From an uncultured Planctomycetales bacterium (GTDB lineage Bacteria > Omnitrophota > Gorgyraeia > Zapsychrales > Fredricksoniimonadaceae), in contig CAZOXU010000007.1 of the NCBI GenBank assembly GCA_964583975.1, forward strand, positions 11,051 to 75,050: 64,000 nucleotides of DNA. The letters run 5' to 3'. A model generated the notes under the pieces. The model searched no databases and was not told the origin of the DNA. It saw nothing but the letters and a program-made list of their open reading frames with translations. Each line of letters begins with the position of its first letter. Positions within the stretch are counted from its first letter, which is position 1. This document shows positions 4,645 to 25,598 of this stretch, piece by piece. Made by a program: the position numbers and the translations under genes.

Positions 4645-4651
4645 CTCTTTC

Positions 4652-6854: not shown

Positions 6855-6924
6855 GGGCCTATTGTGTCAAAAATACGCACCATTAACAATAAAAAATTCC
6901 CAATATGGATGTATTATTAAGATT

Positions 6925-8040
6925 CTACTTCCTTCTGTTTCCTCTAGCAAGACCAGTAATCGTCACACCTTTTTGAACAATAAAAAATACCGCAGCTCCA
7001 TTCTTAATATGGATAGCTGGAACCATGTCTTCGGCTTGTCTTTGATAATACTCTGAGAGCTTGCCTGCACTTTGAGCTAAGCCAGAAAATGCTGCAGCTT
7101 TACCTGGACTACCAGTCACTTCCTGCGCACTGTCACCTTGTAGACTCTTATGAGTAGTCACCTGACTGTCAGCAATAGCTTGGGCACCACCTGAAACGAA
7201 CCCGCCCATAAAAGAAAGAGCCAGCTGGCGACCTGTGCTGTAAATAATCTGTCCTTTAATACCCAATTCACCTGACTCATCAGTGACATATCCTAATTCC
7301 TGCTCATTCTCAAAGACATACCCGCTAGGCAATACACTTGAAATCGCTACAATTTGAATCAACGCGCGCTGGGAAACTAAGTCTCCGTAAGCCTTACCTA
7401 ACACAAAAGCTCCTTTTAATGGAACGCGTGATTTATTAGGCCCATAAAAAGCTTCATCTAAAGAAATTAACACTGGCAAAGGATTATTCATATCAGCAGC
7501 CGCATAAACACCAGTCAACAGTGTACCTTTACAAAAACTACCAATGGGTAGATAAACCCAGTCTTCTTGATTAGTTGGGGCAATATTAGCGACTGATAAT
7601 TCCAATGTCCTTTGAGAAGAATTCTTAGTCTGATCGTCATCTTGCTCCTCTAAATGGTTATTAAATTCATCAAATCTTTGCTGCATCCTTACTCCTAAAT
7701 CTTGATCAAGCTTAAGAACACTTTGGACAATTTCTTTTTGAGAATTACTCAGATGATCTGCTGAGGTTTGTATCTTCTTAACCTGATTTTCCATATTCTT
7801 AACCCTATCCTCGAAGTCATAATAATTCTTCTCCAAACGTTCTATATATGCCTGCTGCTCTACCCCTCCAACTGAAATACCAATATCTTTAACCACGCTA
7901 GTTTTTACCATTTCTTTATTTTGGGGCTCAACTTTCTGGCTCAGTATTAAAAATACAAAACCAATAATTAAAAAAATAACTACAATTATAATAATGATAG
8001 GTTGCTTCTTAAGGCTATTTCTAAATTCCTGGATTTTCAT
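6925..8040 (-). CDS. traB: TraB/VirB10-like T4SS inner-membrane to outer-membrane bridge protein
   Basis: N-terminal TM, coiled-coil/charged region, C-terminal beta-rich domain (LPIGSFCKGTLLTGVYAAADMNNPLPVL...). Position between traK-like and traV-like genes. Confidence 0.6.
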   Translation of the reverse strand: MKIQEFRNSLKKQPIIIIIVVIFLIIGFVFLILSQKVEPQNKEMVKTSVVKDIGISVGGVEQQAYIERLEKNYYDFEDRVKNMENQVKKIQTSADHLSNSQKEIVQSVLKLDQDLGVRMQQRFDEFNNHLEEQDDDQTKNSSQRTLELSVANIAPTNQEDWVYLPIGSFCKGTLLTGVYAAADMNNPLPVLISLDEAFYGPNKSRVPLKGAFVLGKAYGDLVSQRALIQIVAISSVLPSGYVFENEQELGYVTDESGELGIKGQIIYSTGRQLALSFMGGFVSGGAQAIADSQVTTHKSLQGDSAQEVTGSPGKAAAFSGLAQSAGKLSEYYQRQAEDMVPAIHIKNGAAVFFIVQKGVTITGLARGNRRK

Positions 8041-8728
8041 TTGTTGCCCTCATGATTACGTAAACCTTAGATGAATCGCCTTCTCGACCTTTTGGAGTAA
8101 GCATATCCCTTTGTGAACTGACTGCTAAAAGATCTGGTAGAGCTATCTGTTCAATCGGAATAATGACAGAATTCTTAGCTAAATTCCTGGCTACTAGTAT
8201 GTATGCTTTCCAATCAGACAATTCATATACCTTATCCACAGTTAACTTGATTTGATCATTGGATAGCAAAACGCTTCCTTGTGCCGGCAACAGGCTTGCT
8301 CCCGCCGGTTCCCGATTCAGCAAAAGGTCTTTCATTAAATCCATCACATCTGAATAATACCCGCCAACTGGACCAGAAGATTGGTTCTTAATGGAACCCG
8401 CCTGTATTTTAATATCATGATTCGATCCTATGCGCAGATTCAGAGGATAGCTGCTACCCGATACGGTGGTTACAAAAATGTCTGATGGAGTTTGGTTCTT
8501 GGGAAGTAAATACACAGAGTTATCCAAAACCTCTACCAAAACAGAATCTGGATCTCCGCCCTTGACGATCTTAGCAACCTTGGCTGGGAATTCCACCTGG
8601 GTAACCTTACCTTCTTCAACCTTAATATCTGTGGGACGTCCTTCATCCTTTAGCGATGCTGCATAAGAATTAAAACTAAAAAATAAGACAAGCATTACTA
8701 CACTAATAATTAATTTATTTAACATCAT
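8021..8728 (-). CDS. traK: TraK-like (VirB9 analogue) periplasmic T4SS protein
   Basis: 235 aa, signal peptide. Size and position between traE-like and traB-like genes as in F. Assignment is by synteny plus composition only. Confidence 0.45.
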   Translation of the reverse strand: MMLNKLIISVVMLVLFFSFNSYAASLKDEGRPTDIKVEEGKVTQVEFPAKVAKIVKGGDPDSVLVEVLDNSVYLLPKNQTPSDIFVTTVSGSSYPLNLRIGSNHDIKIQAGSIKNQSSGPVGGYYSDVMDLMKDLLLNREPAGASLLPAQGSVLLSNDQIKLTVDKVYELSDWKAYILVARNLAKNSVIIPIEQIALPDLLAVSSQRDMLTPKGREGDSSKVYVIMRATNENPGI

Positions 8729-9329
8729 CCATAACCTCCTGATTTACATCGTCAATAATTAAACCGTAGGGATTAAAATCCGTTGGTGGAGTCGGCTTAA
8801 GTCGTATGTGATAAATAGTCCTTTGTAATTTAATCTCTTCCTTACCCATATACACACCTTTATCTCCTTTAATCACCACATTAAAACCTTGCGAATCTTC
8901 GCGTACCTGCGGGTCTTGATTTAATGAAAACAAAGAGGCAATGTTGTTCTCTTTAACCTGCTGAATATCTTTCTTTAATCTGTTGCGTGTTTGATTTAAA
9001 AGCCTCGGCGACATAAAACGTTGAGCCCGCTTATAAACATCCTCTACTGAGGCTGGCGTAAAATTTGTCCAATTAAGTAACCATGAGGCTGAAAACATTA
9101 CCGCTGTCGTTTGAGGAGTATTCTGTGAATAAGCTATACCTGCAGATCCAACGCCTGGCACGTAATAAATTGGCCTAGGTTTTGTAATCATAAAAACTAA
9201 AGCAGCCGTTAAAACCAAAAAACAAAAGCTCATTACCATAAGCATAGCTCCTAACCTGGTATTGAGGAATTCCGATGTAGACCAGCGATCAATGAACTGT
9301 GAACTTTTTGACATAATCGGTTTTTGCAT
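8715..9329 (-). CDS. traE: TraE-like (VirB8 analogue) bitopic T4SS protein
   Basis: Single N-terminal TM then periplasmic domain. C-terminal YHIRLKP...FNPYGLIIDDV resembles the F TraE C-terminus. Synteny supports the call. Confidence 0.5.
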   Translation of the reverse strand: MQKPIMSKSSQFIDRWSTSEFLNTRLGAMLMVMSFCFLVLTAALVFMITKPRPIYYVPGVGSAGIAYSQNTPQTTAVMFSASWLLNWTNFTPASVEDVYKRAQRFMSPRLLNQTRNRLKKDIQQVKENNIASLFSLNQDPQVREDSQGFNVVIKGDKGVYMGKEEIKLQRTIYHIRLKPTPPTDFNPYGLIIDDVNQEVMDDVK

Positions 9330-9603
9330 AAATGCAGTACCTTTGAACTTTCTTAACTGGAGGTATTAGCCCAGGCAAACTAAAACCTTGGTTATATAAC
9401 CAATGCAATAAATAACCTGGTGGCTTATCCTTTTTAAACTCCATTAATGCAAACCACGCGACAATGGTTAAAATTCCAAAAATAAGTGGATTAAAAAACA
9501 AACAACCCAATCCGCCAAACATTCCCAAGAATCCTATATCTTCGATTTCAAGACCAAGAAGTAAAAGAGGTCGATCCAAAGTTCTAGGGCATTTTCGCTT
9601 CAT
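9289..9603 (-). CDS. traL: TraL-like (VirB3 analogue)
   Basis: From internal Met: MKRKCPRTLDRPLLLLGLEIEDIGFLGMFGGLGCLFFNPLIFGILTIVAWFALMEFKKDKPPGYLLHWLYNQG aligns by eye with F TraL (P-x-TL...GLPLDE...FGIKKLKKG...LIYWY). The ORF-track N-terminal extension is treated as spurious. Confidence 0.6.
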   Translation of the reverse strand: MKRKCPRTLDRPLLLLGLEIEDIGFLGMFGGLGCLFFNPLIFGILTIVAWFALMEFKKDKPPGYLLHWLYNQGFSLPGLIPPVKKVQRYCIYAKTDYVKKFTVH

Positions 9604-9613
9604 TTTATTCTCC

Positions 9614-9895
9614 TTAAACTCGTCCAAGCAAAATTGGTAAGAACAACAGAAGCAGAAAAGCCGTTCCGCAACAAAGGGCAGTTTTATGTTTACCCTGTAA
9701 TAAACTTGCAATTCCCACTAACAACACAACAGCTGCCAAAATCTTTATAACTGGCCCTTGTACAATGCTCAGAACCTTATCTGAAAAATCTTTACTAACC
9801 TCTAGTGGATCGTCCGTTGCTGCTATAGCTTTTGAAGCACAGACAAAAAACATTAAAAGTACACCTGATATAAAATTACTAACTTTTAACAACAT
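9614..9895 (-). CDS. Candidate T4SS pilin (TraA/VirB2/TrbC-like)
   Basis: 93 aa. Cleavable signal peptide ending AIAA, then about 68 aa with two hydrophobic helices. First gene of the L-E-K-B block, as traA is in F. Confidence 0.45.
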   Translation of the reverse strand: MLLKVSNFISGVLLMFFVCASKAIAATDDPLEVSKDFSDKVLSIVQGPVIKILAAVVLLVGIASLLQGKHKTALCCGTAFLLLLFLPILLGRV

Positions 9896-9910: not shown

Positions 9911-11089
9911 TTAACGTTTATTAATAATTTGAAAACATTGTCTAAACCCAATAAAACTAAAAATAGGCAGGACACACAATATAAATGCTGACACCGCACT
10001 AAAATATGGATACTCCCAAATACCATAAATTGCGCCAGAATTATGAATTTGAATATGAAAGACCATCATAGAAACATAATGTGCTAAAGCAGCAATTAAA
10101 CCCCAAGATTTAATCCACAAAAATATCTCAAGATAGTGCAACAAAATACTAAAACGATGAAAGATAAGTACTGCAAACATAAAAAAAGGGAAACTCACGT
10201 ATAAACAAAAGTTTACCCATCCATATATATAGAGAAAGAAGCTGTGAACGCCTGTGATCAAAAACCAATACAAATTCTCTTGGCGCGGACGCAATTGCCC
10301 CTGAAAGATACTGTCAAGAATTTGATTATCAATATTGCTAGATGAAATATTAGAATGCTGTAATAATTGCCTGATTTTCATCCATGGCCCTTGAGGATCA
10401 CTAAGTAATTGCAGTAGATTATTCTTTATTTCATCCCACTTTTGCTTCCCTTGTTGTGAATATTGATGAACAATACTCACGCTTCCTGGTGATAATGAAC
10501 GTAAATCATAGGTTGGATTACGATTAGTATAGAAAGCCAGCGCAGGTAAATAATGCGCATAAATAAAATCATTCAAATCTTTCTTTAAGCTTATATCAAT
10601 AATGGGCGTGTTAATAAATTGATTGGCCTGCAATGCGAGCCTCTGAATTCCTAGAGGTTCATCCAGAAAACGAAAATCATCAGCCAACACGTTATCTATA
10701 GCAGAAATTATCCCAATATTCATAGCATCAGCCATCTGTCCAAAATACGACAGGACTAATGGCATAACATTCATAGTAGTTTGAGAATTCTTGACATCTT
10801 GTGTTGATGTATTACTTGTGCCGTAGACTTCCATGACACTTTTAATATGAGGCTCTTGGCGAGAAGGCACTACTATCATCATCCATCCGGCAATACAAAT
10901 AAAAGCAAACACAGCAAAATGCCTGTAATTTGCCTCTCTAGCTGAACGCCAGACGCTGTAGCCAAATCCGATAGCAAAGGCTACAAATCCTAAATGTGAA
11001 GTAAAAAAGAATCTAACAAGGCTTTGCGATACATTTAACCCCCACGCAGATAGCGCAGCATCAATGGGCGTGAAACCAAAAATATCCAT
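9911..11089 (-). CDS. Polytopic membrane protein (2 N-terminal TM, about 200-aa periplasmic loop, 4-5 C-terminal TM), possibly VirB6/TraG-N-like
   Basis: Topology read from hydrophobic segments only. First gene of the tra-like array. Confidence 0.3.
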   Translation of the reverse strand: MDIFGFTPIDAALSAWGLNVSQSLVRFFFTSHLGFVAFAIGFGYSVWRSAREANYRHFAVFAFICIAGWMMIVVPSRQEPHIKSVMEVYGTSNTSTQDVKNSQTTMNVMPLVLSYFGQMADAMNIGIISAIDNVLADDFRFLDEPLGIQRLALQANQFINTPIIDISLKKDLNDFIYAHYLPALAFYTNRNPTYDLRSLSPGSVSIVHQYSQQGKQKWDEIKNNLLQLLSDPQGPWMKIRQLLQHSNISSSNIDNQILDSIFQGQLRPRQENLYWFLITGVHSFFLYIYGWVNFCLYVSFPFFMFAVLIFHRFSILLHYLEIFLWIKSWGLIAALAHYVSMMVFHIQIHNSGAIYGIWEYPYFSAVSAFILCVLPIFSFIGFRQCFQIINKR

Positions 11090-11274: not shown

Positions 11275-11676
11275 CTAACAAATACCTGCATAAGTTCCTG
11301 TTGCTGTACAAACCCAAGAACCAGCGCTACCTGATGTTCTTGATAATTGAACATAATTGGTACCAGAGGCTTGACGAGAGTTAGTTGCCACAATGAGCAC
11401 TGAACTTCCGCCAGGATTAGTAATGACATAACCCCATTTAGGACTGGAAGCAGCTCCACCCAAAAGACAATTGGTAGGAACGAAATCTTTTCCTTGAAGA
11501 CATCCTTCTACCTGTGTTTTCAAAGAAGAAGCATTTGTTAAAGCTTCAGCTGCTTGTGAACGTTCTACGTTAGCAAATAAATTTGGCAATGCAATAGCTG
11601 CCAAAATACCAAGAATAATCAAGACGACGATAATCTCAATAAGTGTAAAACCTGAATTATTACGTATTTTTCTCAT
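11275..11676 (-). CDS. Type IV prepilin / T2SS major pseudopilin (GspG/PilA-like)
   Basis: MRKIRNNSGFTLIEIIVVLIILGILAAIALP: a class III leader with G/FTLIE prepilin-peptidase site and Glu+5. 133 aa. Confidence 0.85.
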   Translation of the reverse strand: MRKIRNNSGFTLIEIIVVLIILGILAAIALPNLFANVERSQAAEALTNASSLKTQVEGCLQGKDFVPTNCLLGGAASSPKWGYVITNPGGSSVLIVATNSRQASGTNYVQLSRTSGSAGSWVCTATGTYAGIC

Positions 11677-11693: not shown

Positions 11694-13817
11694 TTATTTT
11701 GATAATACCATTTTTAACTTCAACGCCCTTTTAGGATCAACTAAAAAGGCCTGCTTATAAGCATTGTCGGCTAATTCATATTGAGCACTAAAAAATAAAA
11801 TTTCTCGCAATCTGATAAGAAGTTCAAAACTTTTACTTTTACTTATCAGTTCAGTTGCAATCTGTTTTGCTTTTTCTATATTATTAGCTCTCAAATATAT
11901 TCTCACTTTATACAACTCAACTACATCATGAACAAAATAATTCTCTTTAACTTGATCTAAAACGTCTATTGCTTTTTGATACTGCTTTTGCTCTTCCAAT
12001 ATACTTATTTTGTATATCGGAATATCTATGGAAAATATATCATACTTTTGAGCTTCGTCAAGGTAAGATAAAGCTTTTTTATAGTCCCCTTGAAACCTAT
12101 GTATGACAGCATAAATGTCTTCTTTTTTGTCACTAAACTGTGGGCTTAAATTAATTTTTTCTGAACTGCTTATTTTATGAAATTTATTTAAAATGTTACC
12201 TTCATGATCTATGTATCCAAAACGTTCTAAATCCTCAAATAAAGCCTCTACATCAACCTCAATTTCATTAAAATCTGAAGCCTTAATTTTCCCTCCTTCA
12301 AGCATAGATATAGTAGCTAAACCCAAATATGCCGACAAAAATGTGGGGTCCGCATCTAACAATTTATTATAATAAAACTTAGCTTCCTTATAATCCCCCT
12401 TCTGAACATATAAAGATCCTAAATTACCGAAAACAAAAAGCTTTCTTTGGGTTTCAAGAAGAGATTTAAAACAATTAATTGAATTGTCAATATTACTAAA
12501 ATTTTGCAAGTATGAACAATAACCAATAGCAGGAAAATCAAAGCCTGGAGTTTCAGCAACCCATTGAGTATAGTAAGAAGCAGGATTATTGAATAATAAA
12601 TTTTGTTTATATGAGAATAAAAACAAAAATGTAGAAAGCAAAACTAACAAGACATAAGGAAACCAGCTTATAAGAAATTTTGTTTTATGTATAAACCATG
12701 AAATAATGGCAAAAAACCCAATATTTGTATAAAAAATCCAATGTGGTTCAAAATAAAAGAATCCCTGACCAAGTATATTATAAGAAGCAGGGGCAGATAA
12801 AACAAAACCAAATGAAAACATCAACCAAAAAAACAACATCTTCTTGTTTTCTCTATAAAACACTACAGAGAAATATAAAAAAACACATAAATAAAAAACA
12901 AACACCCATATCCATTTCCCAGCCATGTATTTATCAACCGACGTCACCCATTGAAGAAAAATATTGTCTGGATAGAATAATTTTGTAATAACCCATCTAA
13001 TTATCCTGGCGTATGCCGCGCAAGCTTCATACCAAGTGATTTTAAAACCTCCAAAAACAGCACCTAAAAGCCCCCCGGAAGTCATGGACAACTTTGAACG
13101 AAAATATAGATAGAATAAAAAGACGCTAAAGAATCCAGAACAAAGAAAAAAACGAAACCTATTAATGGTTATGGTAGCTAAAAAATAAAACAATAAAATT
13201 AGAGGAAATATAAACGCTAACTCATGAAATAAAAGTGTAAAAAGAAAAAGTACCAAATAAAGAAGATACTGGCTCCAATGAAAAAGACCTCTCTCCTTTG
13301 AAATCTTATTAATATAAATAAAGATTAAATTAAAAAATACAATTTGAAGAGACAGATGAAACGCGGTCTTATAATTAACAGCTAAACCATTAAATGGATG
13401 CAAAAGATACAGCAATGCGGATGAGCTAGATATAAAGCGGCTAGAAGTAATTGAAAAAACAAACAGAAAAATACTGTAACAAGCCAAAACGAAAGAAACC
13501 AAACTAACAAATTGATAGGCTACACTATTACTATTAAGCAAAGAAGATTCTATACTAAACAAAAAATGAGTCAGCGGACGATAATACCCCCACCGGTTCT
13601 CAAAATTCTCAAAACCAACACGATCTGTTAAATTAGGAATAAAATCATAAGAAAAGAATTGGGGATTCTGCTTTCTTACATTTAAATAATGATCTGCATC
13701 ATCTATAAAAAATGGATTCTTAAAACTATCCCAGAAATTAAAGACACCAACTAGAATAAGAAGAAAAAAGAAAAGAATCTTGAAATGTTTATTAAAGAAA
13801 TTGGGCAAGCTAAACAT
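11694..13817 (-). CDS. GT-C fold membrane glycosyltransferase (about 11 TM) with C-terminal TPR domain
   Basis: FFIDDADHY acidic motif in the first extracytoplasmic loop, many TM helices over about 430 aa, then TPR-like repeats (GDYKEAKFYYNKLLDADP...). Sits between gspF and the pilin gene. Confidence 0.5.
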   Translation of the reverse strand: MFSLPNFFNKHFKILFFFLLILVGVFNFWDSFKNPFFIDDADHYLNVRKQNPQFFSYDFIPNLTDRVGFENFENRWGYYRPLTHFLFSIESSLLNSNSVAYQFVSLVSFVLACYSIFLFVFSITSSRFISSSSALLYLLHPFNGLAVNYKTAFHLSLQIVFFNLIFIYINKISKERGLFHWSQYLLYLVLFLFTLLFHELAFIFPLILLFYFLATITINRFRFFLCSGFFSVFLFYLYFRSKLSMTSGGLLGAVFGGFKITWYEACAAYARIIRWVITKLFYPDNIFLQWVTSVDKYMAGKWIWVFVFYLCVFLYFSVVFYRENKKMLFFWLMFSFGFVLSAPASYNILGQGFFYFEPHWIFYTNIGFFAIISWFIHKTKFLISWFPYVLLVLLSTFLFLFSYKQNLLFNNPASYYTQWVAETPGFDFPAIGYCSYLQNFSNIDNSINCFKSLLETQRKLFVFGNLGSLYVQKGDYKEAKFYYNKLLDADPTFLSAYLGLATISMLEGGKIKASDFNEIEVDVEALFEDLERFGYIDHEGNILNKFHKISSSEKINLSPQFSDKKEDIYAVIHRFQGDYKKALSYLDEAQKYDIFSIDIPIYKISILEEQKQYQKAIDVLDQVKENYFVHDVVELYKVRIYLRANNIEKAKQIATELISKSKSFELLIRLREILFFSAQYELADNAYKQAFLVDPKRALKLKMVLSK

Positions 13818-15061
13818 TAATGACTAATTCCTCCCCCACCCTGTCCAAGCTTAAACAAAGGAAGGAAGATTGAAATGACAATAACCCCAATAACTCCCGC
13901 CATAAAAACTAACATGACTGGTTCAAAAATAGTACTAAACCTTTTCATCGTGGTTTCCACATGATCTTTATAATATTTAGCTACATGATCAAACATTTTA
14001 GCAAGCTCACCTGTTTCTTCTCCCACCTGAATCATTTGAACAGCCAAGACAGGAAAAAAGCTTTCCTTAACCATTGAAACAGCTAGCCCCTTACCCTCGC
14101 TGACATCTTCACGTATTTTGGCAATCAGATACCCGGCGGTTTGATTTTCAACTAATTTTTGGACAATTTCCAAGGCTAAAACAATAGGAACACCTGAACT
14201 CACTAAAATTGACATCTGAGAAGAGAATCGTTCCATAATAATCAATTTCGTCACATCACCAATAATAGGCAATTGAAATATAATTTGTTCAAACTGTAAG
14301 CTTCCCATGGGGGTCTTAAAATAGCTTCTCAAAATAAAGAATACCCCTGCTACCCCCCCTAAAATATACAAAAAATTTGTTTTAATAAATTTAAAAGTTG
14401 CCAATAGAATCTTGGTCATACCCGGAAGATCTGCATGCATGGATACAAAGATTTCTTCAAATCTGGGCGCCACAAAAAGAGCAAAAAACATAACAGCTCC
14501 AACACTAACAAAAACTAGTATAAGTGGATAGATCATAGCTGATATAACCGTACTCTTAAAAGCTGCCTGCTCTTCCACATGTAAGGCTAGTTTATTTAAA
14601 ACAAGAGGCATTGTTCCAGAAGCCTCCCCTACTTCAATAATAGAAACCCAAAACTGAGAAAAAACCTTCGGATGTTTAGCCAAACTTTCGCTTAGGGATT
14701 TACCAGCCTCAACATCCGTTCGTATCTGTTTGGTTACTTCATGAAATTTCTTACTGCTAATCTGAGAAATACATACATCCAAACTACGCAACAAAGCAAC
14801 CCCAGCTTCCAACATCGTTGCTAATTGTCTAGAAAAAATCAAAAGGTCTTCTAACTTAACGCTATCATGAGTAAACTTCATGGTTGTTGATCGAGCTGCT
14901 ACAACCTGTTCTTTAGTCTTTTCATTCATTAATCCGACTTTAATGATAAAAAGACCTTCGCTTTGCAATCTATCTACCACAGCCTGCTCATTGAAAGCCT
15001 CTATAACATCGGTTTTAACCTTACCTTGAGCATCCCTAGCTGTATAAGTGAACATCGGCAT
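13817..15061 (-). CDS. gspF: T2SS/T4P platform protein GspF/PilC
   Basis: 414 aa, duplicated GspF-type domains with three TM helices. Confidence 0.85.
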   Translation of the reverse strand: MPMFTYTARDAQGKVKTDVIEAFNEQAVVDRLQSEGLFIIKVGLMNEKTKEQVVAARSTTMKFTHDSVKLEDLLIFSRQLATMLEAGVALLRSLDVCISQISSKKFHEVTKQIRTDVEAGKSLSESLAKHPKVFSQFWVSIIEVGEASGTMPLVLNKLALHVEEQAAFKSTVISAMIYPLILVFVSVGAVMFFALFVAPRFEEIFVSMHADLPGMTKILLATFKFIKTNFLYILGGVAGVFFILRSYFKTPMGSLQFEQIIFQLPIIGDVTKLIIMERFSSQMSILVSSGVPIVLALEIVQKLVENQTAGYLIAKIREDVSEGKGLAVSMVKESFFPVLAVQMIQVGEETGELAKMFDHVAKYYKDHVETTMKRFSTIFEPVMLVFMAGVIGVIVISIFLPLFKLGQGGGGISH

Positions 15062-15085: not shown

Positions 15086-16810
15086 CTAACCCGTACTTAA
15101 AGTCGAGCCTAAAATTTCCTCGACACTCGTTAAACCTTCTTCAACTTTTTTCATTCCTGATTCAAACAAGCTATCCATACCATTTTTACGTGCCGCATCT
15201 TTAAGCTCTTCATAGGTGCAGTTTTTAGCTAACATAGAACGAATTTCTTCATTAATATACATTACCTCTGATATAACCATACGTCCCTTATACCCTGTAT
15301 GAGCACATTCATCACAACCCTTAGCTTTATATAGTAAATCTGTTTTGACCTTATAATCTCCCACAACGACGCCATTATTTTCATAAGGTTCTTTACACTT
15401 TGGACAAAGTTTTCTAGCTAATCTTTGACCAATAACCATAACCAATGAGGGCGTCAAAAGATAGTTAGGCACTCCAATATCCATAAGACGCGTCAAGGCT
15501 GATGGAGCATCGTTGGTGTGAAGCGTGCTTAAAACCAAGTGTCCCGTAAGCGCGGCACGCACACAAATCTGCGCTGTTTCCAAATCACGAACTTCACCCA
15601 CCAGCATTATATCAGGATCCTGGCGCAAAAATGCTCTAAGAGCAGAAGCAAAAGTTAAACCAATTTCTGTACGTACGGCCACCTGATTAATACCTTCGAT
15701 TCTAAATTCTACAGGATCCTCTACTGTAACAATATTTTTAGAAACATCTTTAACTTCATTAAGAGCGGCATAAAGGGTAGTTGATTTTCCACTTCCCGTG
15801 GGTCCAGTAACAAAAAATAAACCGTAAGAAGAATCTAAAGCTTTACGAATAAACCCAAGCTGTTTAGCATCAAATCCTAAATTAGCCAGCTCAAGCTTAA
15901 TGGCGCCTTTATCCAAAATACGCATAACAACCTTCTCCCCCCAAATAGTAGGAATGGTTGAAACGCGTAAATCCACCACTCTGTCTTCTAGTTTAGCTGA
16001 AATATTACCATCCTGTGGCAAACGTTTCTCAGCAATATCTAATTTAGCTAGAATTTTTACACGCGAAACAATGGCCAGATGCAAATGGGCTGCTGGAGGT
16101 GGAATCTGATACAACACACCATCAATACGATAACGAATCTCAATCTTATCCTTACCAGGTTCAATATGGATATCACTAGCCTTCTCATCAATAGCCTGAC
16201 GGATAATCAAGTCCACCAATTTAATAACAGGAGCTTCCTCAGCTTTCGCAATAAGACGGTCAATACTTAATTCTGTTTCAGGCTCCCTAGTCAGACTAAC
16301 ATCTACATCTTCTTCTTTTTGATCCGAATAGCTTTTCTGGACTTCTTTACCCAACATGCTATCTTTACCTTGAGAGGTATAGAAATCATTGATAGCTTTA
16401 GTAAGGTCTGTTTTAGTACCAATCACCAAATTTAGATCAAAACCTGTCAGCTTTGATAAATTATCCAACATTAAAAAATCAAGAGGGTCAAAAACAGCAC
16501 ATGTCAAAGCATTCATGTTTTTTGACAAAGGAAGCACCATATGCTTGCGAGCAAAATCATAAGGTACAATTTGTTCAAGATTTTGATCTAACCGAGGTTT
16601 CATTAATTCGGTTTTTTGAGAAGCGTAAGGTATCATAAGCTGCGTGCCAAGAGCCATGGCTAAATCAGCTTCCGTAATCATACCCAACTTAAGCAACACC
16701 TCTCCAATGCGGCCTTTTTGCTGTTTTTGAGCTTCAATAGCCTCTTGCAGCTGGCTTTCAGTGATCAAACCTTGTTTAATGAGTAGTTCACCGAGTTTTA
16801 GGTGTATCAT
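15086..16810 (-). CDS. gspE: T2SS/T4P assembly ATPase GspE/PilB/MshE with N-terminal MshEN domain
   Basis: Walker A GPTGSGKST, Asp box, His box, tetracysteine CPKC...CDEC. The N-terminus carries two tandem 24-aa RLGxxLLxxGLIxxxxLxxALxxQ motifs separated by 5 aa. Confidence 0.9.
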   Translation of the reverse strand: MIHLKLGELLIKQGLITESQLQEAIEAQKQQKGRIGEVLLKLGMITEADLAMALGTQLMIPYASQKTELMKPRLDQNLEQIVPYDFARKHMVLPLSKNMNALTCAVFDPLDFLMLDNLSKLTGFDLNLVIGTKTDLTKAINDFYTSQGKDSMLGKEVQKSYSDQKEEDVDVSLTREPETELSIDRLIAKAEEAPVIKLVDLIIRQAIDEKASDIHIEPGKDKIEIRYRIDGVLYQIPPPAAHLHLAIVSRVKILAKLDIAEKRLPQDGNISAKLEDRVVDLRVSTIPTIWGEKVVMRILDKGAIKLELANLGFDAKQLGFIRKALDSSYGLFFVTGPTGSGKSTTLYAALNEVKDVSKNIVTVEDPVEFRIEGINQVAVRTEIGLTFASALRAFLRQDPDIMLVGEVRDLETAQICVRAALTGHLVLSTLHTNDAPSALTRLMDIGVPNYLLTPSLVMVIGQRLARKLCPKCKEPYENNGVVVGDYKVKTDLLYKAKGCDECAHTGYKGRMVISEVMYINEEIRSMLAKNCTYEELKDAARKNGMDSLFESGMKKVEEGLTSVEEILGSTLSTG

Positions 16811-18337
16811 TTATTTGTTGTTTTTCTCAGTCGAATCAAGCTGCTGATTGACAGCATCCATTTTGAGGGGATCCATACCTTCACGATCGATGCGTTGGGA
16901 TGCTTCCATTGTAAATTTCTTAAGAAGATTATCATTAGCAATCTTAGGAGTAATAAAAATAATTAATTCTCTTTCGGTCTCTATTACACTCTTGTGACGG
17001 AAAGGTCCTCCTATCACTGGCAGGTCGCCCAAAAAGGGTAATTTAGAAATATCGACAATTCTTTGTTTACGCAACAGCCCCCCGATAATCACTGTTTCTC
17101 CATTCTTGACCTTTAATATGGAATCTGTTTTACGTGATTCCACATCAATAACATTAGTTCCATTAACTCTTATTCCAGAATCGCTGGTGTCATCAATCTG
17201 AGGTGAAACTTTTAAGACAATCTCTCCTGTAGTTAAATTAGCTTGCGGAGTGACATCTAACATAACCTTAACAGGCTTAGTTATAGCTGTTTCTGTTTTA
17301 GTGGTCCCTGTGGTACTTGTACTTTCTGTAGCAGAAACACCCACCGTTCGATCTCCACCAACTTCAATATGACCAGTCTGATTATTTAATGTCAAAATCT
17401 TTGGACTAGCTAAACTATGCGTGTCAGCCTGAGATTTTAAAAAATCTAGAGCTGCCGTCATGCCAGAAAAATCAAGAATACCAGGAGTAAATTGTAACGA
17501 ATTAGCAGGTCCCGAATCGCTACCCGAGCTAGATGATCCTGAACCCCCTGATGAACTATCCGATGAATCAGAACCTGATGCTAATTTATAAGGGGCTCCC
17601 CCATTATTCATTTTATTTAAAATAAAATTTTGATTAAAAGGAACCAGGGTCTCTCTAGAACCACCCCTAAACGTAAGAGGCGTTTGCCCATAAAGCACAC
17701 CTATTTTCTCTGAATTCCCCTTAGAAACGTCTAATATTTCCACTTCAATTAAAATTTGCACTACAGGCACATCAAGCTTGGCAATAGTTTCTTCAATTAA
17801 AGGAAATTGTTCAGGAACATCCGAAATGATAAAACTATTTGTCCTAGGATCTTCTTGTAATTTTCCATCTTTGGATTTAATAGCATCTAACGCAGCCTTA
17901 ATGCCTCCTGTTGCATCCTTGCCGTTCATTTTAGAAGTCGACACCGAAGCAAACTTTAGAGGAAAAACCTTTGTAACTGTTTTGTCTTTTTCCTTGGGCT
18001 TAACAATAAAAACGTTGCTATTTGCAGTCATTTCATAAGTTAAATCATTAGCATCTAAGATTTTCTCTAACGCTTCTTCCGTAGGAACTTTTTCTAAAAA
18101 AATTGTTACTTTCTTGTTAGACACTTCTGCCGCTGATATAAAATTTAATCCTGCTTGCTGGGAGAATATTTTTAACACATCAGTTAATGAAGTATCTCTA
18201 GAATTGATTGAAATTTTCTTGGAATAATCAGAATAGATAAAACGATTTTCAATATCTTCCACAGCTGCTACCGATAAAGTAGTAGAAAACATGATCAGGT
18301 ATAACGACATTGCTAGGTAACGAAAATTCATGAACAC
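16811..18337 (-). CDS. gspD: Secretin (GspD/PilQ family), short form
   Basis: 508 aa. Signal peptide, N0-like domain, Ser/Gly/Asp low-complexity linker, C-terminal secretin domain (VIIGGLLRKQ...LPFLGDLPVIGGPF). Confidence 0.85.
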   Translation of the reverse strand: MFMNFRYLAMSLYLIMFSTTLSVAAVEDIENRFIYSDYSKKISINSRDTSLTDVLKIFSQQAGLNFISAAEVSNKKVTIFLEKVPTEEALEKILDANDLTYEMTANSNVFIVKPKEKDKTVTKVFPLKFASVSTSKMNGKDATGGIKAALDAIKSKDGKLQEDPRTNSFIISDVPEQFPLIEETIAKLDVPVVQILIEVEILDVSKGNSEKIGVLYGQTPLTFRGGSRETLVPFNQNFILNKMNNGGAPYKLASGSDSSDSSSGGSGSSSSGSDSGPANSLQFTPGILDFSGMTAALDFLKSQADTHSLASPKILTLNNQTGHIEVGGDRTVGVSATESTSTTGTTKTETAITKPVKVMLDVTPQANLTTGEIVLKVSPQIDDTSDSGIRVNGTNVIDVESRKTDSILKVKNGETVIIGGLLRKQRIVDISKLPFLGDLPVIGGPFRHKSVIETERELIIFITPKIANDNLLKKFTMEASQRIDREGMDPLKMDAVNQQLDSTEKNNK

Positions 18338-18369: not shown

Positions 18370-18933
18370 TTATTTTATTTCATTTTGCAACAAAAAGCTA
18401 CTGCCATCCTGACTTTTTATTAGGACACCCTTTTGCTCAATTTTTAAAACTTTGACAAACTCAACCTTATCATTTTCAGCGAGATCCAAAACTCCACCAT
18501 CATAAAGAACGCGAGTCTTGGTAAGATTAACATCATGACCAACACCTTTAATCTGTTGATTAATAATAATAAAATAATCTCCTTCGCTCACCACATTATC
18601 ATTAATCACCGCTTGAGGATGCGGGGTGTCTAAAACCAAACAGCTGATTTTAAATTCCTTACTCAAGTCCACTCTGTCAGGCGGCTTGGGTTTTATATCA
18701 ATTGGCTTTGGTGGTTCTGGCGGTTTGACGACAACCTTCTTCTTAGGAATCAGCCTTAAAAATGGATTCTTAGGATCAGACAAGAAGTCATTAATAAGCT
18801 GCTCTTCAGCATCTTTATCTTGTTTGAGTTCAACTGCTTTTTCAGCAACAGCGGCAGACTTTTCTGCAGACCATTTGACAGGAACAAATACAAAACATTG
18901 GAATACTAAAAGTATTATGACTCTTTTAATCAT
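18370..18933 (-). CDS. PilP/GspC-like periplasmic protein with Pro/Lys-rich linker
   Basis: 187 aa, signal peptide, PPEPPKPIDIKPKPP linker, C-terminal beta domain. Immediately upstream of the secretin. Confidence 0.4.
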   Translation of the reverse strand: MIKRVIILLVFQCFVFVPVKWSAEKSAAVAEKAVELKQDKDAEEQLINDFLSDPKNPFLRLIPKKKVVVKPPEPPKPIDIKPKPPDRVDLSKEFKISCLVLDTPHPQAVINDNVVSEGDYFIIINQQIKGVGHDVNLTKTRVLYDGGVLDLAENDKVEFVKVLKIEQKGVLIKSQDGSSFLLQNEIK

Positions 18934-19460
18934 TTTTTAACCTGAACAGAAGTAAGATTAAACTCATAACTAGTTGCTTCTGCATCGGATTCATCCATCG
19001 TTCCCTTCCATTTTTCAATCTTAAATGGATATTTTCCCGTCTCTAGCATATTCATAAAAGAGACCAGATCTTTGAAGTCTTTTATTTTAACTGTTAACAA
19101 TATAGGGGTGACTATGTAATAATCAAATTTTTTAATGTCTCCGGCATTGATTTCAATAATTTCTACGTTATGTTGCAGGGCGTAGTCGGCAATTTTATTA
19201 GTTAAAGCATCAGAAGTAAGGGGCTTAGGTAAAGCAGCGACATAGTCACTAAGTTGCTTTTTAACATTACCCCGCTCTTCAATCACAATATTTTTCTGCT
19301 TTTTTTGCTGAATCTGGCTCTGGTAAGCAGCTGTTTTAGAAGAAAAACTGCCCCACAAAACTATCCCCAATATAAAAAAAGCCAGCACAACGACCACAAC
19401 TAAAATAAGGCTTTTTTTAGCAAGAATATTTTGTAGCGTATTATTCGGATTCGCACTCAT
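18930..19460 (-). CDS. PilO/GspM-like bitopic protein
   Basis: 176 aa, single TM after about 20 aa, periplasmic coiled-coil plus ferredoxin-like region. Operon position. Confidence 0.4.
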   Translation of the reverse strand: MSANPNNTLQNILAKKSLILVVVVVLAFFILGIVLWGSFSSKTAAYQSQIQQKKQKNIVIEERGNVKKQLSDYVAALPKPLTSDALTNKIADYALQHNVEIIEINAGDIKKFDYYIVTPILLTVKIKDFKDLVSFMNMLETGKYPFKIEKWKGTMDESDAEATSYEFNLTSVQVKK

Positions 19461-19466
19461 AGAATC

Positions 19467-21029
19467 TTATAACCCCTGAGAACCGGTAATTGTAAATGTC
19501 GAAACATTTTGACCATCCAATTCTTTTTTCTGCGGAGATGTCGAAGTAAAGGTCATTTCAGAAAAATACTTGCTCTCTCTTAAATTATTCAAGAATTCAC
19601 TAACCTTTCTATATTCGACCCCTTTATCTTTCACATAAATATACCCAGCCAATTCTAAACTTATACGATTATTCGAAAGGGTTGTAATTTTAGCTTCCTG
19701 CAACCATATTCCAGCTGGAACGGCCCTCGTCAAAACTACCACCATTGGCGCCATACGACTACTACTTTGAGACTGAATTTTTTCGTAATTATCTATCTTA
19801 TCTTTATCAGCTTTTATTTCTAATTTAAGCTGTTCGACAGAGAAATTAAGAAAGTCTTGATCTGTCTTAGCCATCTTCTCATTTTGTTTTTTAATAACAT
19901 CTAACTTTTGTTGCCCCAGATAAAAAACGCCTCCCAACAATAAGGAGCACAATAAAGCAGCGACAATAGCAGGTTTAAAATCTTCTAGGGTCAGACCTAA
20001 AAATTGACTAAAATCAAAAGATAAAGCATTAGGGCTTGAACTACTGGTTGCCTGAGGCGCGGCCTTCGCTTCCAAGAAATTAAATGCATTAAACTTTGAA
20101 GAAACCTTATCCAACGAAGAACCCCAAGCGCACACACTATCCATGCCCAAATGTCGCTGCAAACCTACGTTAAGCGAGGGATCTGCAATTCGGACTTTCA
20201 CTGTCAATTCTTCCGTCAAAATACGGGTCAATTCTGGATCAGGAATATCTGTAAGGACTAATACCTCTTTTATTTTTTCTTGGGAAAACTGACTATTGTA
20301 ATAACCAAATGATTTTCTAACCTCCCTTACGAGTTGCGCCCGTACAATATCAGAAGCAGCCTTAGGATCATGCCCTTCCGTCACAGATAAAGCAAAATCT
20401 CTCACAAAGTAAGCAATCCCCTTTTCATAAAAAATAATGTGGACATCATGCTTATTGATATAAACAACAACCGTACTTTGATCAATTTTTAAGAACTTTT
20501 TAGAGATGAGATACTTAGCCAGACTAACTAACGCTGGTTCAAAAATAAATGGCTTACCACCGATTTGCTTGATGATACGTTCATATTTTTCTAACGTCTG
20601 TTTTCGAACAGCATAAAAAATAATTCTCCAGCGTTTTTGATTTCCATCTATTTGAACCACTGGCTGATACATGTAATCCAACAGTTTTAAATCAAAAGGT
20701 AAATATTTCTTGGCTTCATAAAAAACGGCATTATTTAATTCGTTAGTTGTCATCCAAGGAATCACAAAAGAACGTAAAAATATTTCTTCAATAGGAATAG
20801 AAACGCAAACTTGACCAGGATTAATCTTTTCATCTCGAAATACTTTTTGAATATGGCCAACGATCTGTGTTTCAACTACAGTTTCAGAGCCATAGGATGC
20901 ATCTTGGGCAGGACTAAGGATAGAATTTAAAGGGGTAGATAAAACCCTTTGCAATTTATTGCGATTAGAGTTTGTTAAAACAAGGAGCTGATCGGTAAGA
21001 TAAATACCTATTCTATCGAGATTTGCCAT
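19467..21029 (-). CDS. PilM-PilN fusion (GspL-like): cytoplasmic actin-like domain, TM, periplasmic domain
   Basis: 520 aa. N-terminal about 330 aa actin/FtsA-like, TM helix AIVAALLCSLLLGGVFYL, then coiled-coil periplasmic segment. Confidence 0.55.
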   Translation of the reverse strand: MANLDRIGIYLTDQLLVLTNSNRNKLQRVLSTPLNSILSPAQDASYGSETVVETQIVGHIQKVFRDEKINPGQVCVSIPIEEIFLRSFVIPWMTTNELNNAVFYEAKKYLPFDLKLLDYMYQPVVQIDGNQKRWRIIFYAVRKQTLEKYERIIKQIGGKPFIFEPALVSLAKYLISKKFLKIDQSTVVVYINKHDVHIIFYEKGIAYFVRDFALSVTEGHDPKAASDIVRAQLVREVRKSFGYYNSQFSQEKIKEVLVLTDIPDPELTRILTEELTVKVRIADPSLNVGLQRHLGMDSVCAWGSSLDKVSSKFNAFNFLEAKAAPQATSSSSPNALSFDFSQFLGLTLEDFKPAIVAALLCSLLLGGVFYLGQQKLDVIKKQNEKMAKTDQDFLNFSVEQLKLEIKADKDKIDNYEKIQSQSSSRMAPMVVVLTRAVPAGIWLQEAKITTLSNNRISLELAGYIYVKDKGVEYRKVSEFLNNLRESKYFSEMTFTSTSPQKKELDGQNVSTFTITGSQGL

Positions 21030-21812: not shown

Positions 21813-22070
21813 CTAACGTGGCTTATTGATTTGCCGCATCTTTAACCATGGCTGAAAGAACGCTCCAGAAGATTCATTAAACATAACTTCTTCCATCCCT
21901 TTACTTGATACCACGCTCAAGGTGTTTTCTTGATCAGATTGAGCTGGAGCTATCATTTGCCCCAAATAAGCAAATGAACTGCTTTGTCTGGGAGAAGAAA
22001 CAGAAAAACCAACCCAAACAAAACTTACAATTAAAATATGCACAAAAATGGAAACCAGATAATAGCGCAC
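21813..22070 (-). CDS. Short TonB/TolA-like membrane-anchor protein (stub)
   Basis: 85 aa. N-terminal TM directly following exbD. No recognisable C-terminal TonB domain. Confidence 0.25.
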   Translation of the reverse strand: MRYYLVSIFVHILIVSFVWVGFSVSSPRQSSSFAYLGQMIAPAQSDQENTLSVVSSKGMEEVMFNESSGAFFQPWLKMRQINKPR

Positions 22071-22071: not shown

Positions 22072-22473
22072 TTAATTCCTTTGGTCGGTCACGATATGAA
22101 CTTGAGCATTTCCCATGGCCCGACATAAATCCCAAACATCCATTACCCTACCCATCGATGAATGACGATCAACTCTAATAAAAATATTGCGATGAGAATA
22201 ATCAATCTTAGCAAGATTCTTTCTAAGCTCATTAAGTGTCACAACCTTACCATTTAAATAGAATATGTTCTCGGCTGTAATCGTGATCGTTTGATCGTTT
22301 TGTAAATTCTCACTTTCAACGCCTGAAGGAATAAACACTTCAAAACCAGCAGGTCTAGAGAACGAAGAACAATAAATAAGAAACAAAAGAATTAATAAAA
22401 AAAGATTAAAGACCGCAGCCATTAAAATTGGATAAAAAGGGATTTGTATAATTTGAAAATTATTGGTGTTCAT
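22072..22473 (-). CDS. exbD: ExbD/TolR biopolymer transport protein
   Basis: 133 aa, single N-terminal TM. Characteristic size and position after exbB. Confidence 0.75.
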   Translation of the reverse strand: MNTNNFQIIQIPFYPILMAAVFNLFLLILLFLIYCSSFSRPAGFEVFIPSGVESENLQNDQTITITAENIFYLNGKVVTLNELRKNLAKIDYSHRNIFIRVDRHSSMGRVMDVWDLCRAMGNAQVHIVTDQRN

Positions 22474-22476
22474 TGT

Positions 22477-23139
22477 CTAGGTGTTTTCTTGGGAAGTATT
22501 CAGCTGAGACATTTGAACCATAATATGTACTGTTTGAGCCATAGCAATTTGCAAATCAGCAACGATGTTATTAATCCTTGATACACAAAAGCTATACACA
22601 GAAAAACTCAAAATACAAACCATCAATCCCGCCACACTCGAGAACAAGGCCTGCCAAACACCTAAGGTCACATCACCTACACTTAAAGGATTTAACACGT
22701 TGGAACGAATCTGAATTGAATGAAAGACTATTGTTAAACCTATTATAGTTCCCAATAAACCTATCAATACCGATAAATTAATAATGAAATACAAAATGCT
22801 CATTCGTTCTTTCAAACGATAAGCCTCATAAACAAAAACTTCTTCGGCTGCTGTTTTAATAACATCTGCCGAACTACCAAACTTTAATAAGGCTGCTTTA
22901 AAAATACGACTAAAAGGACTATCATAAGATTCACAAATGCTCAATGTATGTTTAATGCTTTCTTTTTGTAGTGAATTCATTAAATTGATCCTATGAATTT
23001 TTCCAAGTTTTTCTAAAGAAGACAAAAAAACAAGTCTTTCAATCCCCACAGCTAAGGCGACAACAGACATCAAAATAAGCGGCCACATCATCGGTCCGCC
23101 TCTTAAAATTAATTGCCAAACATTAAATATTGTTACCAT
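22477..23139 (-). CDS. exbB: ExbB/TolQ/MotA-family proton channel
   Basis: 220 aa, three TM helices, conserved C-terminal TM pattern. Confidence 0.75.
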   Translation of the reverse strand: MVTIFNVWQLILRGGPMMWPLILMSVVALAVGIERLVFLSSLEKLGKIHRINLMNSLQKESIKHTLSICESYDSPFSRIFKAALLKFGSSADVIKTAAEEVFVYEAYRLKERMSILYFIINLSVLIGLLGTIIGLTIVFHSIQIRSNVLNPLSVGDVTLGVWQALFSSVAGLMVCILSFSVYSFCVSRINNIVADLQIAMAQTVHIMVQMSQLNTSQENT

Positions 23140-25598
23140 TATTTTCTCCCTCCCACATTAGCAGCCAGCCAATCTAAACGCTCTTGGGCAAATTTAGATT
23201 CCTCAGAGTTTAATTGAACAATCTTCTGATAGGTGACCCGCGCTCCATCCCAATCCTTACGATCTTCATAAATCCTGGCAACTCTCAAGTAGGCCTTCGC
23301 CGCCCAAGATGATTGCTTGGCAGACACAGAAGAAACTTTTAAATACTCGCTAACAGCCTCATCTAACCGCCCCATGAGTTCATAGGTGTCTCCAATATCA
23401 AACAAAATCTCAGCATTACTAATCTTTCCTTTAGAAGCATCTACTTCCAAAGCTTTGCGATAGGTTTCAATTTCTTTATCATAACTTTGATTATTACGAT
23501 AAAGTTGGGCTATTTTTAAATACGATTCTCTGGCCAACTCTGGAGACTCAGCAGCAATAGCTTCATAAGCCTGCGCAGCTTTTTGAGAATCAAATTCTTT
23601 GGCAAATATGCCTGCAATAGCTAACTTGACCTTAGAAAAAAGCACCGCGTCTGTATTAGAGATTTGCTTATACCGAGCTAGGGCTTGATCATATAACCCT
23701 TGAATTTCAAAGGCCTGTCCCATTTCATAATTAATCTGTTCAATACCTGCATGCTCAGGAAAATGATCTAGAATTTGCTGATAATACGTCAATGATTGGG
23801 TATAATCGCCATTCTTTAAATAAAACTGAGCCAACCACAATGAAGCTTCAAACTCAGCCTCGGTTTTAGGATATTTATAAACAATTAATTTAAATCGTTT
23901 AACGGCCTCTTTAATTTGTTTTAATTCATACTGACATTTAGCAATACCAATATCTGAATTCTTGGCCACATTGGTATCTTCTGGATAAAGCCGTAGAATC
24001 TTTTGAAATAACTTTAATGCCTCCTCTGGCTGTTTTAAATTTAAATAAGACAAAGCTAAAACATAATTAGCTTCTGGCAAAAAGCTAGCTGGACGAGAAT
24101 AATTCTTTAAGAATTCGTCCATTTTTATAGCAGCGGCTTTAAAATTACCGCTTCGAAAAGCAGCCAATCCCAAATAATAATTAACGTCCTCCAAATAACG
24201 ACTATTGGGGAAATTAGCTTTTAAGTGTTCAAAAGCAACAACCGATGCTTTAATCTTTCCGATCTTTAAAAGAGCAATGGCCTGACGATGTTCAACATAA
24301 TCAAACATTGTGTTATCTGGATATTTCTTCAATATTCCATCATAAATATCCACCGCTTCACTCATTTTCCCAGCATCGGCTAAAGCATCGGCCATCTGAA
24401 GCAAAGCATTGACCTTCACATCCACTTTGTCTGTAGTATCAGCAATTTTTTGGAAACGCTCTTGAGCCATATTCAAGCTATTTAACTTAGCATAGGTCCA
24501 TGCTATTCCTAAATTAGCTTTTAAAGCTAACTCTTGATTCTCTCCCCGATCAATCACATAGCTGTAGTCTCCCAAAGCATCTTCAAATTTCTTAAGCATG
24601 AAATTGACGTTGGCCCTTCCTAAATGAGCCTCAAGGTAATGTGTTCCTCGCGGATAATTCTTAATTAAGTCATTATAAACTTCGACGGCAGATTGAAAAT
24701 CTTCTTTCTCCACAAAAATATTGGCTTTGACAAGCAAAAGATCATCATCAGGAATCCCTTTAGCTTTACAAAACTCTTGTCCATCCTTAAGAACTTTTTG
24801 AGCTTCTGTGAATTTTTTTAACTTCAAACAACTCCATATCTTTCCTGTATAAGCTGTAAAAACCAATTTAGTATCAGTGGATTTCAAAGCCTTATCATAA
24901 TAGGTAAGCGCATTTTCATAGTCATCCATATAATAATAAGTATCCGCCACATTCAAATAAACATCCCATAGATGCTCTGATTGAGGATATTTAGTCAGAT
25001 AACGCATGAATTTACTTAAAGCCCCGTGATAATCCTCTGTATCATAAAGTGATTGCGCCAGCTTCAAAGTAGCATCTTCTGCCAATTGATGTTTTGGAAA
25101 ATCCTTCACCAATTGATCAAATAGGTCTCTAGCTTGAGCGTATTTCTTCTGATCAAAGTAAGACCATCCTAAAGAATAATATGCTTGAGGCAAATAAGCT
25201 GATTGGGGATAATTATCGATAAGTTCTTGGTAGCGAGCCTGGGCTTGAGGATAATTATTCATTTTTAAATACACCTCTCCCAGCCAAAAAATCAAAAGTT
25301 CTTTATTATCAAACGTATCATCCAAACTATTAAATGCATTTAGCGCCTCTGGAAATTTATTCTTAAAGAAATAACACTGTCCCAACAAAAATTTAGCTTG
25401 AGACAATTTAGGATGAGAAGGAAAATCCTGCATCAACTGCTCTAAATAACGAATAGCAACATCATAAAAGCCATCGTCAAAAGCTCTCAGAGCAGTAGCA
25501 TACAATTCATCTCTTTGGCTTTGGGCATAAACTGCACTCGAAGAAGAAAAACAAAATAAAAGACATAAACAAAAACCCAGCCATTTAATTTTTCGCAT
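23139..25598 (-). CDS. Large secreted TPR-repeat protein (>15 TPR units)
   Basis: Signal peptide MRKIKWLGFCLCLLFCFSSSSAVYA. Repeated Y/F-x-x-A-x-x-x-Y motifs throughout 819 aa. Confidence 0.85.
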   Translation of the reverse strand: MRKIKWLGFCLCLLFCFSSSSAVYAQSQRDELYATALRAFDDGFYDVAIRYLEQLMQDFPSHPKLSQAKFLLGQCYFFKNKFPEALNAFNSLDDTFDNKELLIFWLGEVYLKMNNYPQAQARYQELIDNYPQSAYLPQAYYSLGWSYFDQKKYAQARDLFDQLVKDFPKHQLAEDATLKLAQSLYDTEDYHGALSKFMRYLTKYPQSEHLWDVYLNVADTYYYMDDYENALTYYDKALKSTDTKLVFTAYTGKIWSCLKLKKFTEAQKVLKDGQEFCKAKGIPDDDLLLVKANIFVEKEDFQSAVEVYNDLIKNYPRGTHYLEAHLGRANVNFMLKKFEDALGDYSYVIDRGENQELALKANLGIAWTYAKLNSLNMAQERFQKIADTTDKVDVKVNALLQMADALADAGKMSEAVDIYDGILKKYPDNTMFDYVEHRQAIALLKIGKIKASVVAFEHLKANFPNSRYLEDVNYYLGLAAFRSGNFKAAAIKMDEFLKNYSRPASFLPEANYVLALSYLNLKQPEEALKLFQKILRLYPEDTNVAKNSDIGIAKCQYELKQIKEAVKRFKLIVYKYPKTEAEFEASLWLAQFYLKNGDYTQSLTYYQQILDHFPEHAGIEQINYEMGQAFEIQGLYDQALARYKQISNTDAVLFSKVKLAIAGIFAKEFDSQKAAQAYEAIAAESPELARESYLKIAQLYRNNQSYDKEIETYRKALEVDASKGKISNAEILFDIGDTYELMGRLDEAVSEYLKVSSVSAKQSSWAAKAYLRVARIYEDRKDWDGARVTYQKIVQLNSEESKFAQERLDWLAANVGGRK

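Follow-up and report, generated by a model that had tools for sequence, protein, structure and literature searches.

We analysed a 64,000-nucleotide stretch of DNA (hereafter the window; contig CAZOXU010000007.1, positions 11,051 to 75,050) from an uncultured bacterium of the Omnitrophota, with emphasis on a pilB-like gene on the minus strand (15086..16810). The gene encodes a protein of 574 residues, in which an MshEN domain is followed by a hexameric ATPase of the T2SSE family. It lies within a pilus operon that reads, in the order of transcription, PilX-like, PilM-PilN fusion, PilO-like, a 187-residue open reading frame (ORF) at the PilP position, secretin, the ATPase, PilC, a 707-residue tetratricopeptide repeat (TPR) protein and a type IVa pilin. 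An earlier reading of the letters (the original prediction) had described tandem motifs of the MshEN type, a receptor architecture for c-di-GMP (cyclic dimeric guanosine monophosphate), at the N-terminus of a secretion ATPase.

The ATPase and its N-terminal tandem motifs

The ATPase core, residues 190-567 (15110..16243, minus strand), matched Pfam T2SSE (PF00437) with 460.7 bits. Its Walker A motif (336-343, GPTGSGKS), Asp box (364-368), Walker B motif (401-409), His box (422-431) and tetracysteine Zn site (469-502) were all intact. The best-scoring family was TIGR02538 (PilB), which matched residues 5-570 over model positions 1-562 of 564 with 616.1 bits; since this score lies below the equivalog cut-off of 675.65, the protein was filed as PilB-like and not as a strict equivalog. 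GspE (TIGR02533) was rejected as an assignment, with 590.5 bits against a cut-off of 630.25 over residues 82-569 only, and with pilin and PilM/N/O-type genes as neighbours and no pseudopilin set. These sequence features mark the protein as a type IVa pilus extension ATPase of the PilB-like kind, with intact catalytic motifs, and the locus as the machine of a type IVa-like pilus and not as a type II secretion system. The "secretion ATPase" of the original prediction is corrected here, by the best-scoring family and the operon genes, to the type that extends type IVa pili.

Translation of the minus strand at 16640-16801 gave LKLGELLIKQGLITESQLQEAIEAQKQQKGRIGEVLLKLGMITEADLAMALGTQ, residues 4-57 of the 574-residue ORF (15086-16810), and the plus-strand frame over the same interval was full of stops. 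The residues and coordinates given in the original prediction were exact, and the strand is minus. Motif I runs from K5 to Q28 (16727..16798, minus strand; KLGELLIKQGLITESQLQEAIEAQ), with L4 lying outside it, and is predicted to hold one guanine of c-di-GMP. It is followed by the 5-residue spacer KQQKG, residues 29-33 (16712..16726, minus strand), and by motif II from R34 to Q57 (16640..16711, minus strand; RIGEVLLKLGMITEADLAMALGTQ), which is predicted to hold the second guanine. The proposed division into two 24-residue motifs and a 5-residue spacer therefore stood, and the RLG consensus that had been ascribed to both motifs failed for motif I, in which the first Arg is Lys.

The pair was compared with the pattern (R/K/L)LGxx(L/V/I)(L/V/I)xxG(L/V/I)(L/V/I)xxxxLxxxLxxQ, which spans 24 residues twice and defines 11 positions in each copy. 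The extended strict pattern was matched at 19 of the 22 defined positions and the relaxed pattern of the authors who defined it at all of them. The three departures from the strict pattern were conservative hydrophobic substitutions, namely Ile at position 21 of motif I (I-21), Ile at position 2 of motif II (II-2) and Met at II-11; the Lys at I-1 is permitted only by the widened form of the original RLG consensus. The spacer of 5 non-conserved residues makes up a 53-residue unit, as the MshEN definition demands. When the motif expression was run on the six-frame translation of the window, these two copies and no others were found.

The segment is biased in composition towards L, I, Q, E, K and G, and amphipathic helices rich in Leu, Gln and Glu could resemble such motifs by chance. 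However, shuffling of residues 1-65 with the composition kept produced one relaxed motif in 22 of 200,000 shuffles (1.1e-4), whereas the protein carries two that are precisely in register across a 5-residue spacer, and a chance origin is therefore excluded. The profile match described below, with E-values of 1e-17 to 1e-18, and the position-specific conservation across 120 relatives lead to the same result, and we regard the probability of a chance likeness as negligible.

The definition of the motif and the functions assigned to R9, L10, G18/G47, L54/L58 and Q32/Q61 were taken from Vibrio cholerae MshE, in which Arg stacks on guanine, Leu forms hydrophobic clusters, Gly allows the helix turns, and Gln bonds to ribose and phosphate (PMC5013675). 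Replacement of the first Arg by Lys is tolerated, and is even favourable, according to published data. The GSPII-B domain of Thermus PilF, which carries K167 within LKLGELL, binds c-di-GMP with a dissociation constant of 6 nM, the highest affinity measured for an MshEN domain, and its K167R variant has reduced affinity. Lys also stands at this position in DgPilB2 (13.5 nM) and CtPilB (53 nM), and the consensus was accordingly widened to (R/K/L)LG (PMC11731258). The first seven residues of motif I, KLGELL(I/L), are common to residues 167-173 of PilF GSPII-B.

Family membership and conservation of the N-terminal domain

By every sequence and fold test applied, the stretch qualifies as a tandem motif of the MshEN type. 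NCBIfam NF053729 ("c-di-GMP_motif, MshE-related"), a curated 53-residue model with a cut-off of 38 bits, matched residues 5-57 over model positions 1-53 of 53 with 63.1 bits (E=1.5e-17) in the full protein, and with 65.8 bits when residues 1-150 were searched alone. Using phmmer, residues 4-62 were aligned without gaps to residues 8-66 of V. cholerae MshE (PDB 5HTL; E=1.3e-10). In motif I this alignment pairs K5 with R9, L6 with L10, G7 with G11, G14 with G18, L21 with L25, I25 with L29 and Q28 with Q32; in motif II it pairs R34 with R38, I35 with L39, G36 with G40, G43 with G47, L50 with L54, L54 with L58 and Q57 with Q61. Every ligand-contact residue of MshE was thus matched or conservatively replaced, so the expectation that the key Arg, Leu, Gly and Gln positions would be kept on alignment was borne out, with Lys for the first Arg.

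For residues 1-150, an AlphaFold2 model built on a 32-sequence alignment had a predicted local distance difference test score of 87.7. It placed helices at residues 2-12, 18-31, 35-41 and 47-58; the two predicted helix-helix turns contained G14 and G43. The model also had an alpha/beta subdomain with strands at 92-97, 101-106 and 125-130 and helices at 112-122 and 133-148. The best Foldseek match in the PDB was 5HTL, "MshE with cdg", with a template modelling (TM) score of 0.73-0.80 and a root-mean-square deviation of 2.8-3.0 A, and the next matches were the c-di-GMP-bound PilF GSPII-B entries. Taken with the profile scores of 63-66 bits and the gapless alignment, this agrees with the MshE-like receptor architecture of the original prediction. 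The fold is itself a model, and since it is shared with the Xanthomonas citri PilB N-terminal domain (see below), its match backs family membership only and not ligand binding. The MshEN_C (GSPII alpha-beta) subdomain at residues 68-148 (16367..16609, minus strand) matched positions 7-88 of the 90 in Pfam PF05157 with 60.2 bits. Alignment to PF05157 had been recommended as a check of the motifs, for which it proved unsuitable, since the 90-position model covers this C-terminal subdomain only.

The V. cholerae MshEN domain (5HTL; PMC5013675) shares with the window protein the two 24-residue motifs, the 5-residue spacer and the position at the extreme N-terminus, followed by MshEN_C and the T2SSE ATPase. 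It differs in having Arg9 where the window protein has Lys, and Leu29 and Leu39 where it has Ile; the domain identity is about 27%, and in the host machine here the pilin is of the T4a type and the best score is that for PilB, not MSHA. The GSPII-B domain of Thermus thermophilus PilF (8PDK/8PKZ; PMC11731258) also belongs to an extension ATPase of type IV pili and shares the LKLGELL start of motif I and the fold (TM 0.71-0.78). In that domain the Lys stacks on guanine, and the same role is predicted for Lys5. PilF has three tandem GSPII domains, of which GSPII-B has a motif II that begins with Leu and is one residue shorter, whereas there is one such domain in the window protein, its motifs are full-length and motif II starts with Arg.

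An MshEN domain in front of the PilB ATPase is also the arrangement of the single-MshEN PilB proteins of Chloracidobacterium thermophilum, Myxococcus xanthus and Geobacter (5TSG, 3JC8). Among them CtPilB has Lys at motif position 1 as well and binds c-di-GMP at 53 nM, and Geobacter PilB aligns end to end with the N-terminal 146 residues (E=2e-19), although its spacer has 7 residues through a 2-residue insertion. In contrast to these PilB proteins, the window protein scores below the TIGR02538 cut-off (616.1 against 675.65) and comes from a different phylum.

The closest proteins were from metagenome-assembled genomes of Candidatus Omnitrophota, the nearest species representative (JBGAJA010000004.1) having 89% identity; an identical protein is on record in NCBI, on a contig of 91,786 bp. 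Conservation was evaluated on the 120 closest cluster representatives (66-100% identity), among which all 22 motif positions proved conserved. Gly was found at I-3 in 118, at I-10 in all 120, at II-3 in all 120 and at II-10 in 119, and Gln at I-24 in 119 and at II-24 in 111. Position I-1 was Arg in 111 and Lys in 8, while II-1 was Arg in 98 and His in 16; the hydrophobic positions remained hydrophobic. The spacer had 5 residues in 75 representatives, 6 in 44 and 7 in one. The motif positions were also conserved in about 21 Omnitrophota species representatives, the majority residue at I-1 being Lys in the more distant ones, and the tandem motif was intact in essentially all Omnitrophota pilB orthologues examined. 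In some subclades of the phylum motif II varies, with His or Tyr for Arg at position 1, His for Gln at position 24 or a 6-residue spacer. These natural variants could reflect tuning or loss of binding.

Binding of c-di-GMP and control of pilus assembly

The motifs, the fold prediction, the catalytic motifs, the operon context and the phylum-wide conservation are established by this analysis. On the evidence of the sequence, the N-terminus likely binds c-di-GMP, and c-di-GMP control of pilus assembly is the best reading of the locus and a probable one. A single c-di-GMP would sit in the N-terminal four-helix bundle, each 24-residue motif cradling one guanine. Base stacking would fall to Lys5 and Arg34, the hydrophobic clusters would consist of Leu6, Leu21 and Ile25 and likewise of Ile35, Leu50 and Leu54, and Gln28 and Gln57 would make hydrogen bonds with ribose and phosphate. 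Because Lys at position 1 accompanies nanomolar affinities elsewhere, the affinity is probably sub-micromolar by analogy.

If V. cholerae MshE and Chloracidobacterium PilB are taken as guides, the ligand signal may reach the ATPase hexamer by way of the MshEN_C subdomain. Relief of an N-terminal autoinhibition, or an altered affinity for nucleotide, would then let high c-di-GMP favour extension and attachment. In V. cholerae, c-di-GMP-MshE promotes pilus extension and retraction is favoured at low c-di-GMP (PMC7096442). For CtPilB, each of c-di-GMP and ADP is an allosteric effector of the other, and deletion of the N-terminus raises the ATPase activity (PMC6957770). Positive control through relief of autoinhibition would be expected from these two precedents; as to this sign of the effect, which rests on analogy, our confidence is evenly balanced.

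Several observations weigh against the c-di-GMP reading. For Ile in place of Leu at the contacts I-21 and II-2, no tested example was found among the characterised domains. NF053729 is permissive, since PilB N-termini recovered in the same search with a visibly degenerate motif II also passed it, namely those of Polyangiaceae (58.5 bits), Bdellovibrio (55 bits), Endomicrobia (49.5 bits) and Fibrobacteria (43.8 bits). A match to this profile is thus necessary and insufficient, and the argument rests on the residue-level match. The fold does not discriminate either. The N-terminal domain of Xanthomonas citri PilB (7LKM/7LKO), which binds PilZ and not c-di-GMP, has the same GSPII/MshEN fold and matched the model with TM 0.78-0.81, on a par with the MshE match, and it senses c-di-GMP indirectly through PilZ-FimX and not by motifs of its own (PMC8389850). 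Finally, GGDEF, EAL, HD-GYP and PilZ domains were absent by motif expression and Pfam from the window ORFs of at least 100 residues and one ORF of 85 residues (21813-22070), and no c-di-GMP riboswitch family reached its gathering score in an Rfam scan of the window.

The same observations on the profile, on the fold match to the X. citri PilB-N/PilZ complexes and on the lack of c-di-GMP enzymes among the scanned ORFs would suit an alternative in which the MshEN/GSPII fold serves as a protein-interaction module that docks PilM, PilC or an adaptor and binds no c-di-GMP, the motif residues being kept as the core of the helical bundle. Precedents exist in X. citri PilB, which docks PilZ-FimX, and in GspE-N1, which docks GspL, and many motif positions are core hydrophobics and turn glycines (PMC5013675). 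However, positions that lie outside the core and are specific for the ligand, namely position 1 with its basic or stacking residue and position 24 with its Gln, are kept in both motifs here and in most relatives. The sequence is also far closer to MshE (E=1.3e-10) than to X. citri PilB-N, to which the identity is 19% and the match weak (none with a 65-residue query, E=6.6e-4 with a 146-residue query). Docking and c-di-GMP binding are moreover not mutually exclusive, and we consider a purely protein-binding role unlikely.

A second alternative concerns the ligand, which might be another cyclic dinucleotide, such as 3'3'-cyclic GMP-AMP (cGAMP) or cyclic di-adenosine monophosphate (c-di-AMP), or else a nucleotide that originates in a host cell, and not self-made c-di-GMP, as could be the case in a reduced genome without a diguanylate cyclase. 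It would fit the lack of a diguanylate cyclase among the scanned ORFs of the 64 kb and the ultra-small size and host-dependent traits of Omnitrophota (PMC10066038). On the other hand, the characterised MshEN domains are reported to be specific for c-di-GMP (PMC5013675; PMC6957770), the guanine-contacting residues here are canonical and GGDEF domains have been reported in Omnitrophota (10.1101/2023.11.21.568195). GGDEF, EAL, HD-GYP and PilZ were also absent from 359 kb around pilB of Omnitrophota relatives, in which apparent "EAL" matches were RecA and PilB itself. As a control, the same motif expressions gave 0 true matches in 928 kb around pilB in phyla rich in diguanylate cyclases, including Myxococcota and Bdellovibrio, so that the absence of GGDEF near pilB is uninformative. 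We therefore hold a ligand other than self-made c-di-GMP to be highly improbable.

Support for c-di-GMP metabolism at the level of the phylum comes solely from the literature. Many giant proteins of Omnitrophota carry GGDEF domains and have pilZ genes downstream (10.1101/2023.11.21.568195), and a ComFB-CheR protein has been reported from the phylum (PMC12448109). The main survey of Omnitrophota reports type IVa pili in nearly all members, with a proposed role in host attachment, and leaves c-di-GMP unmentioned (PMC10066038); a literature search linking Omnitrophota or Velamenicoccus with c-di-GMP returned passing mentions only. A wider proposal is that the pilus extension motor is gated by c-di-GMP throughout the Omnitrophota, often via the high-affinity Lys variant, and that deployment of the type IVa pilus, for which a role in attachment to host or prey cells has been proposed, is driven by the GGDEF domains of giant surface proteins or, where a cyclase is absent, by foreign c-di-GMP. 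This remains speculative, and we regard it as rather doubtful.

If c-di-GMP binding holds true, it would provide a concrete regulatory input for the type IVa pilus in a mostly uncultivated, ultra-small phylum, and the natural Lys/Arg pair with Ile at two contacts would join the MshEN variants that relate sequence to affinity. The arrangement itself is well described and expected in many PilB/MshE ATPases, and it changes no general concept; the phylum is one that has been little studied.

The pilus operon and the remaining genes of the window

All genes of the pilus operon given here are on the minus strand. The alignment-complex genes (18370..21029) start with the PilM-PilN fusion (19467-21029), which has 520 residues, with a PilM-like part at 54-164 and a PilN-like part at 433-515; its architecture resembles GspL or MshI, and the fused length is retained in relatives. 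It is followed by the PilO-like gene (18930-19460) and by the 187-residue ORF at the PilP position (18370-18933), which had no Pfam match. The stop codon of the pilQ-like secretin gene (16811..18337) abuts the ATG of pilB (TAA ATG). The pilC-like gene for the platform protein (T2SSF; 13817..15061) lies directly downstream of pilB and is syntenic in Omnitrophota relatives. The type IVa pilin gene (11275..11676) encodes N_methyl and Pilin domains, and the 392-residue ORF after it (9911-11089) had no Pfam match and is kept in the two closest relatives. A search for a PilT-like retraction ATPase close to pilB gave no candidate, either in the window or, up to 10 kb from the gene, in Omnitrophota relatives.

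Directly upstream of the pilus genes, genes for an 819-residue TPR protein, ExbB (MotA/TolQ family) and ExbD are located at 22072-25598 on the minus strand. The gene order TPR-ExbB-ExbD-PilMN-PilO-(PilP)-PilQ-PilB-PilC was kept in about 20 Omnitrophota species representatives, and the conserved position of TPR-ExbB-ExbD points to a proton-channel module that is linked in function to the pilus genes.

Directly downstream of the pilus operon, a gene set for F-type conjugation and type IV secretion occupies 1004-9711 on the minus strand. It comprises TraC/VirB4 (1004-3508), TraV (3498-3914), TraB/TrbI (6925-8040), TraK (8021-8728), TraE (8715-9329) and TraL (9289-9711). Interspersed with these, on the same strand, are genes for a PIN protein (3998-4405), for a radical-SAM/SPASM protein (4865-5983) and for a GT2 glycosyltransferase (5883-6854). 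The TraL-E-K-B order after the pilus operon was present only in the two closest relatives mentioned above.

No tRNA genes were found in the 64 kb, and no Rfam family reached its gathering score there. A co-directional biosynthetic block at 28913-44834 (minus strand) contains genes for aspartate dehydrogenase, PanC, FolK, an aminotransferase, DapB, DapA, DapF and LysA, together with ArgH, ArgG, ArgF, ArgD, ArgB, ArgJ and ArgC, after which come rpsI and rplM. The block indicates a fairly complete anabolism for a lineage with small genomes. Up to about 49.4 kb the minus strand carries nearly all genes, and from 49.8 kb the plus strand does; the GC skew is negative over the whole window and weakens at this strand switch with its sign unchanged.

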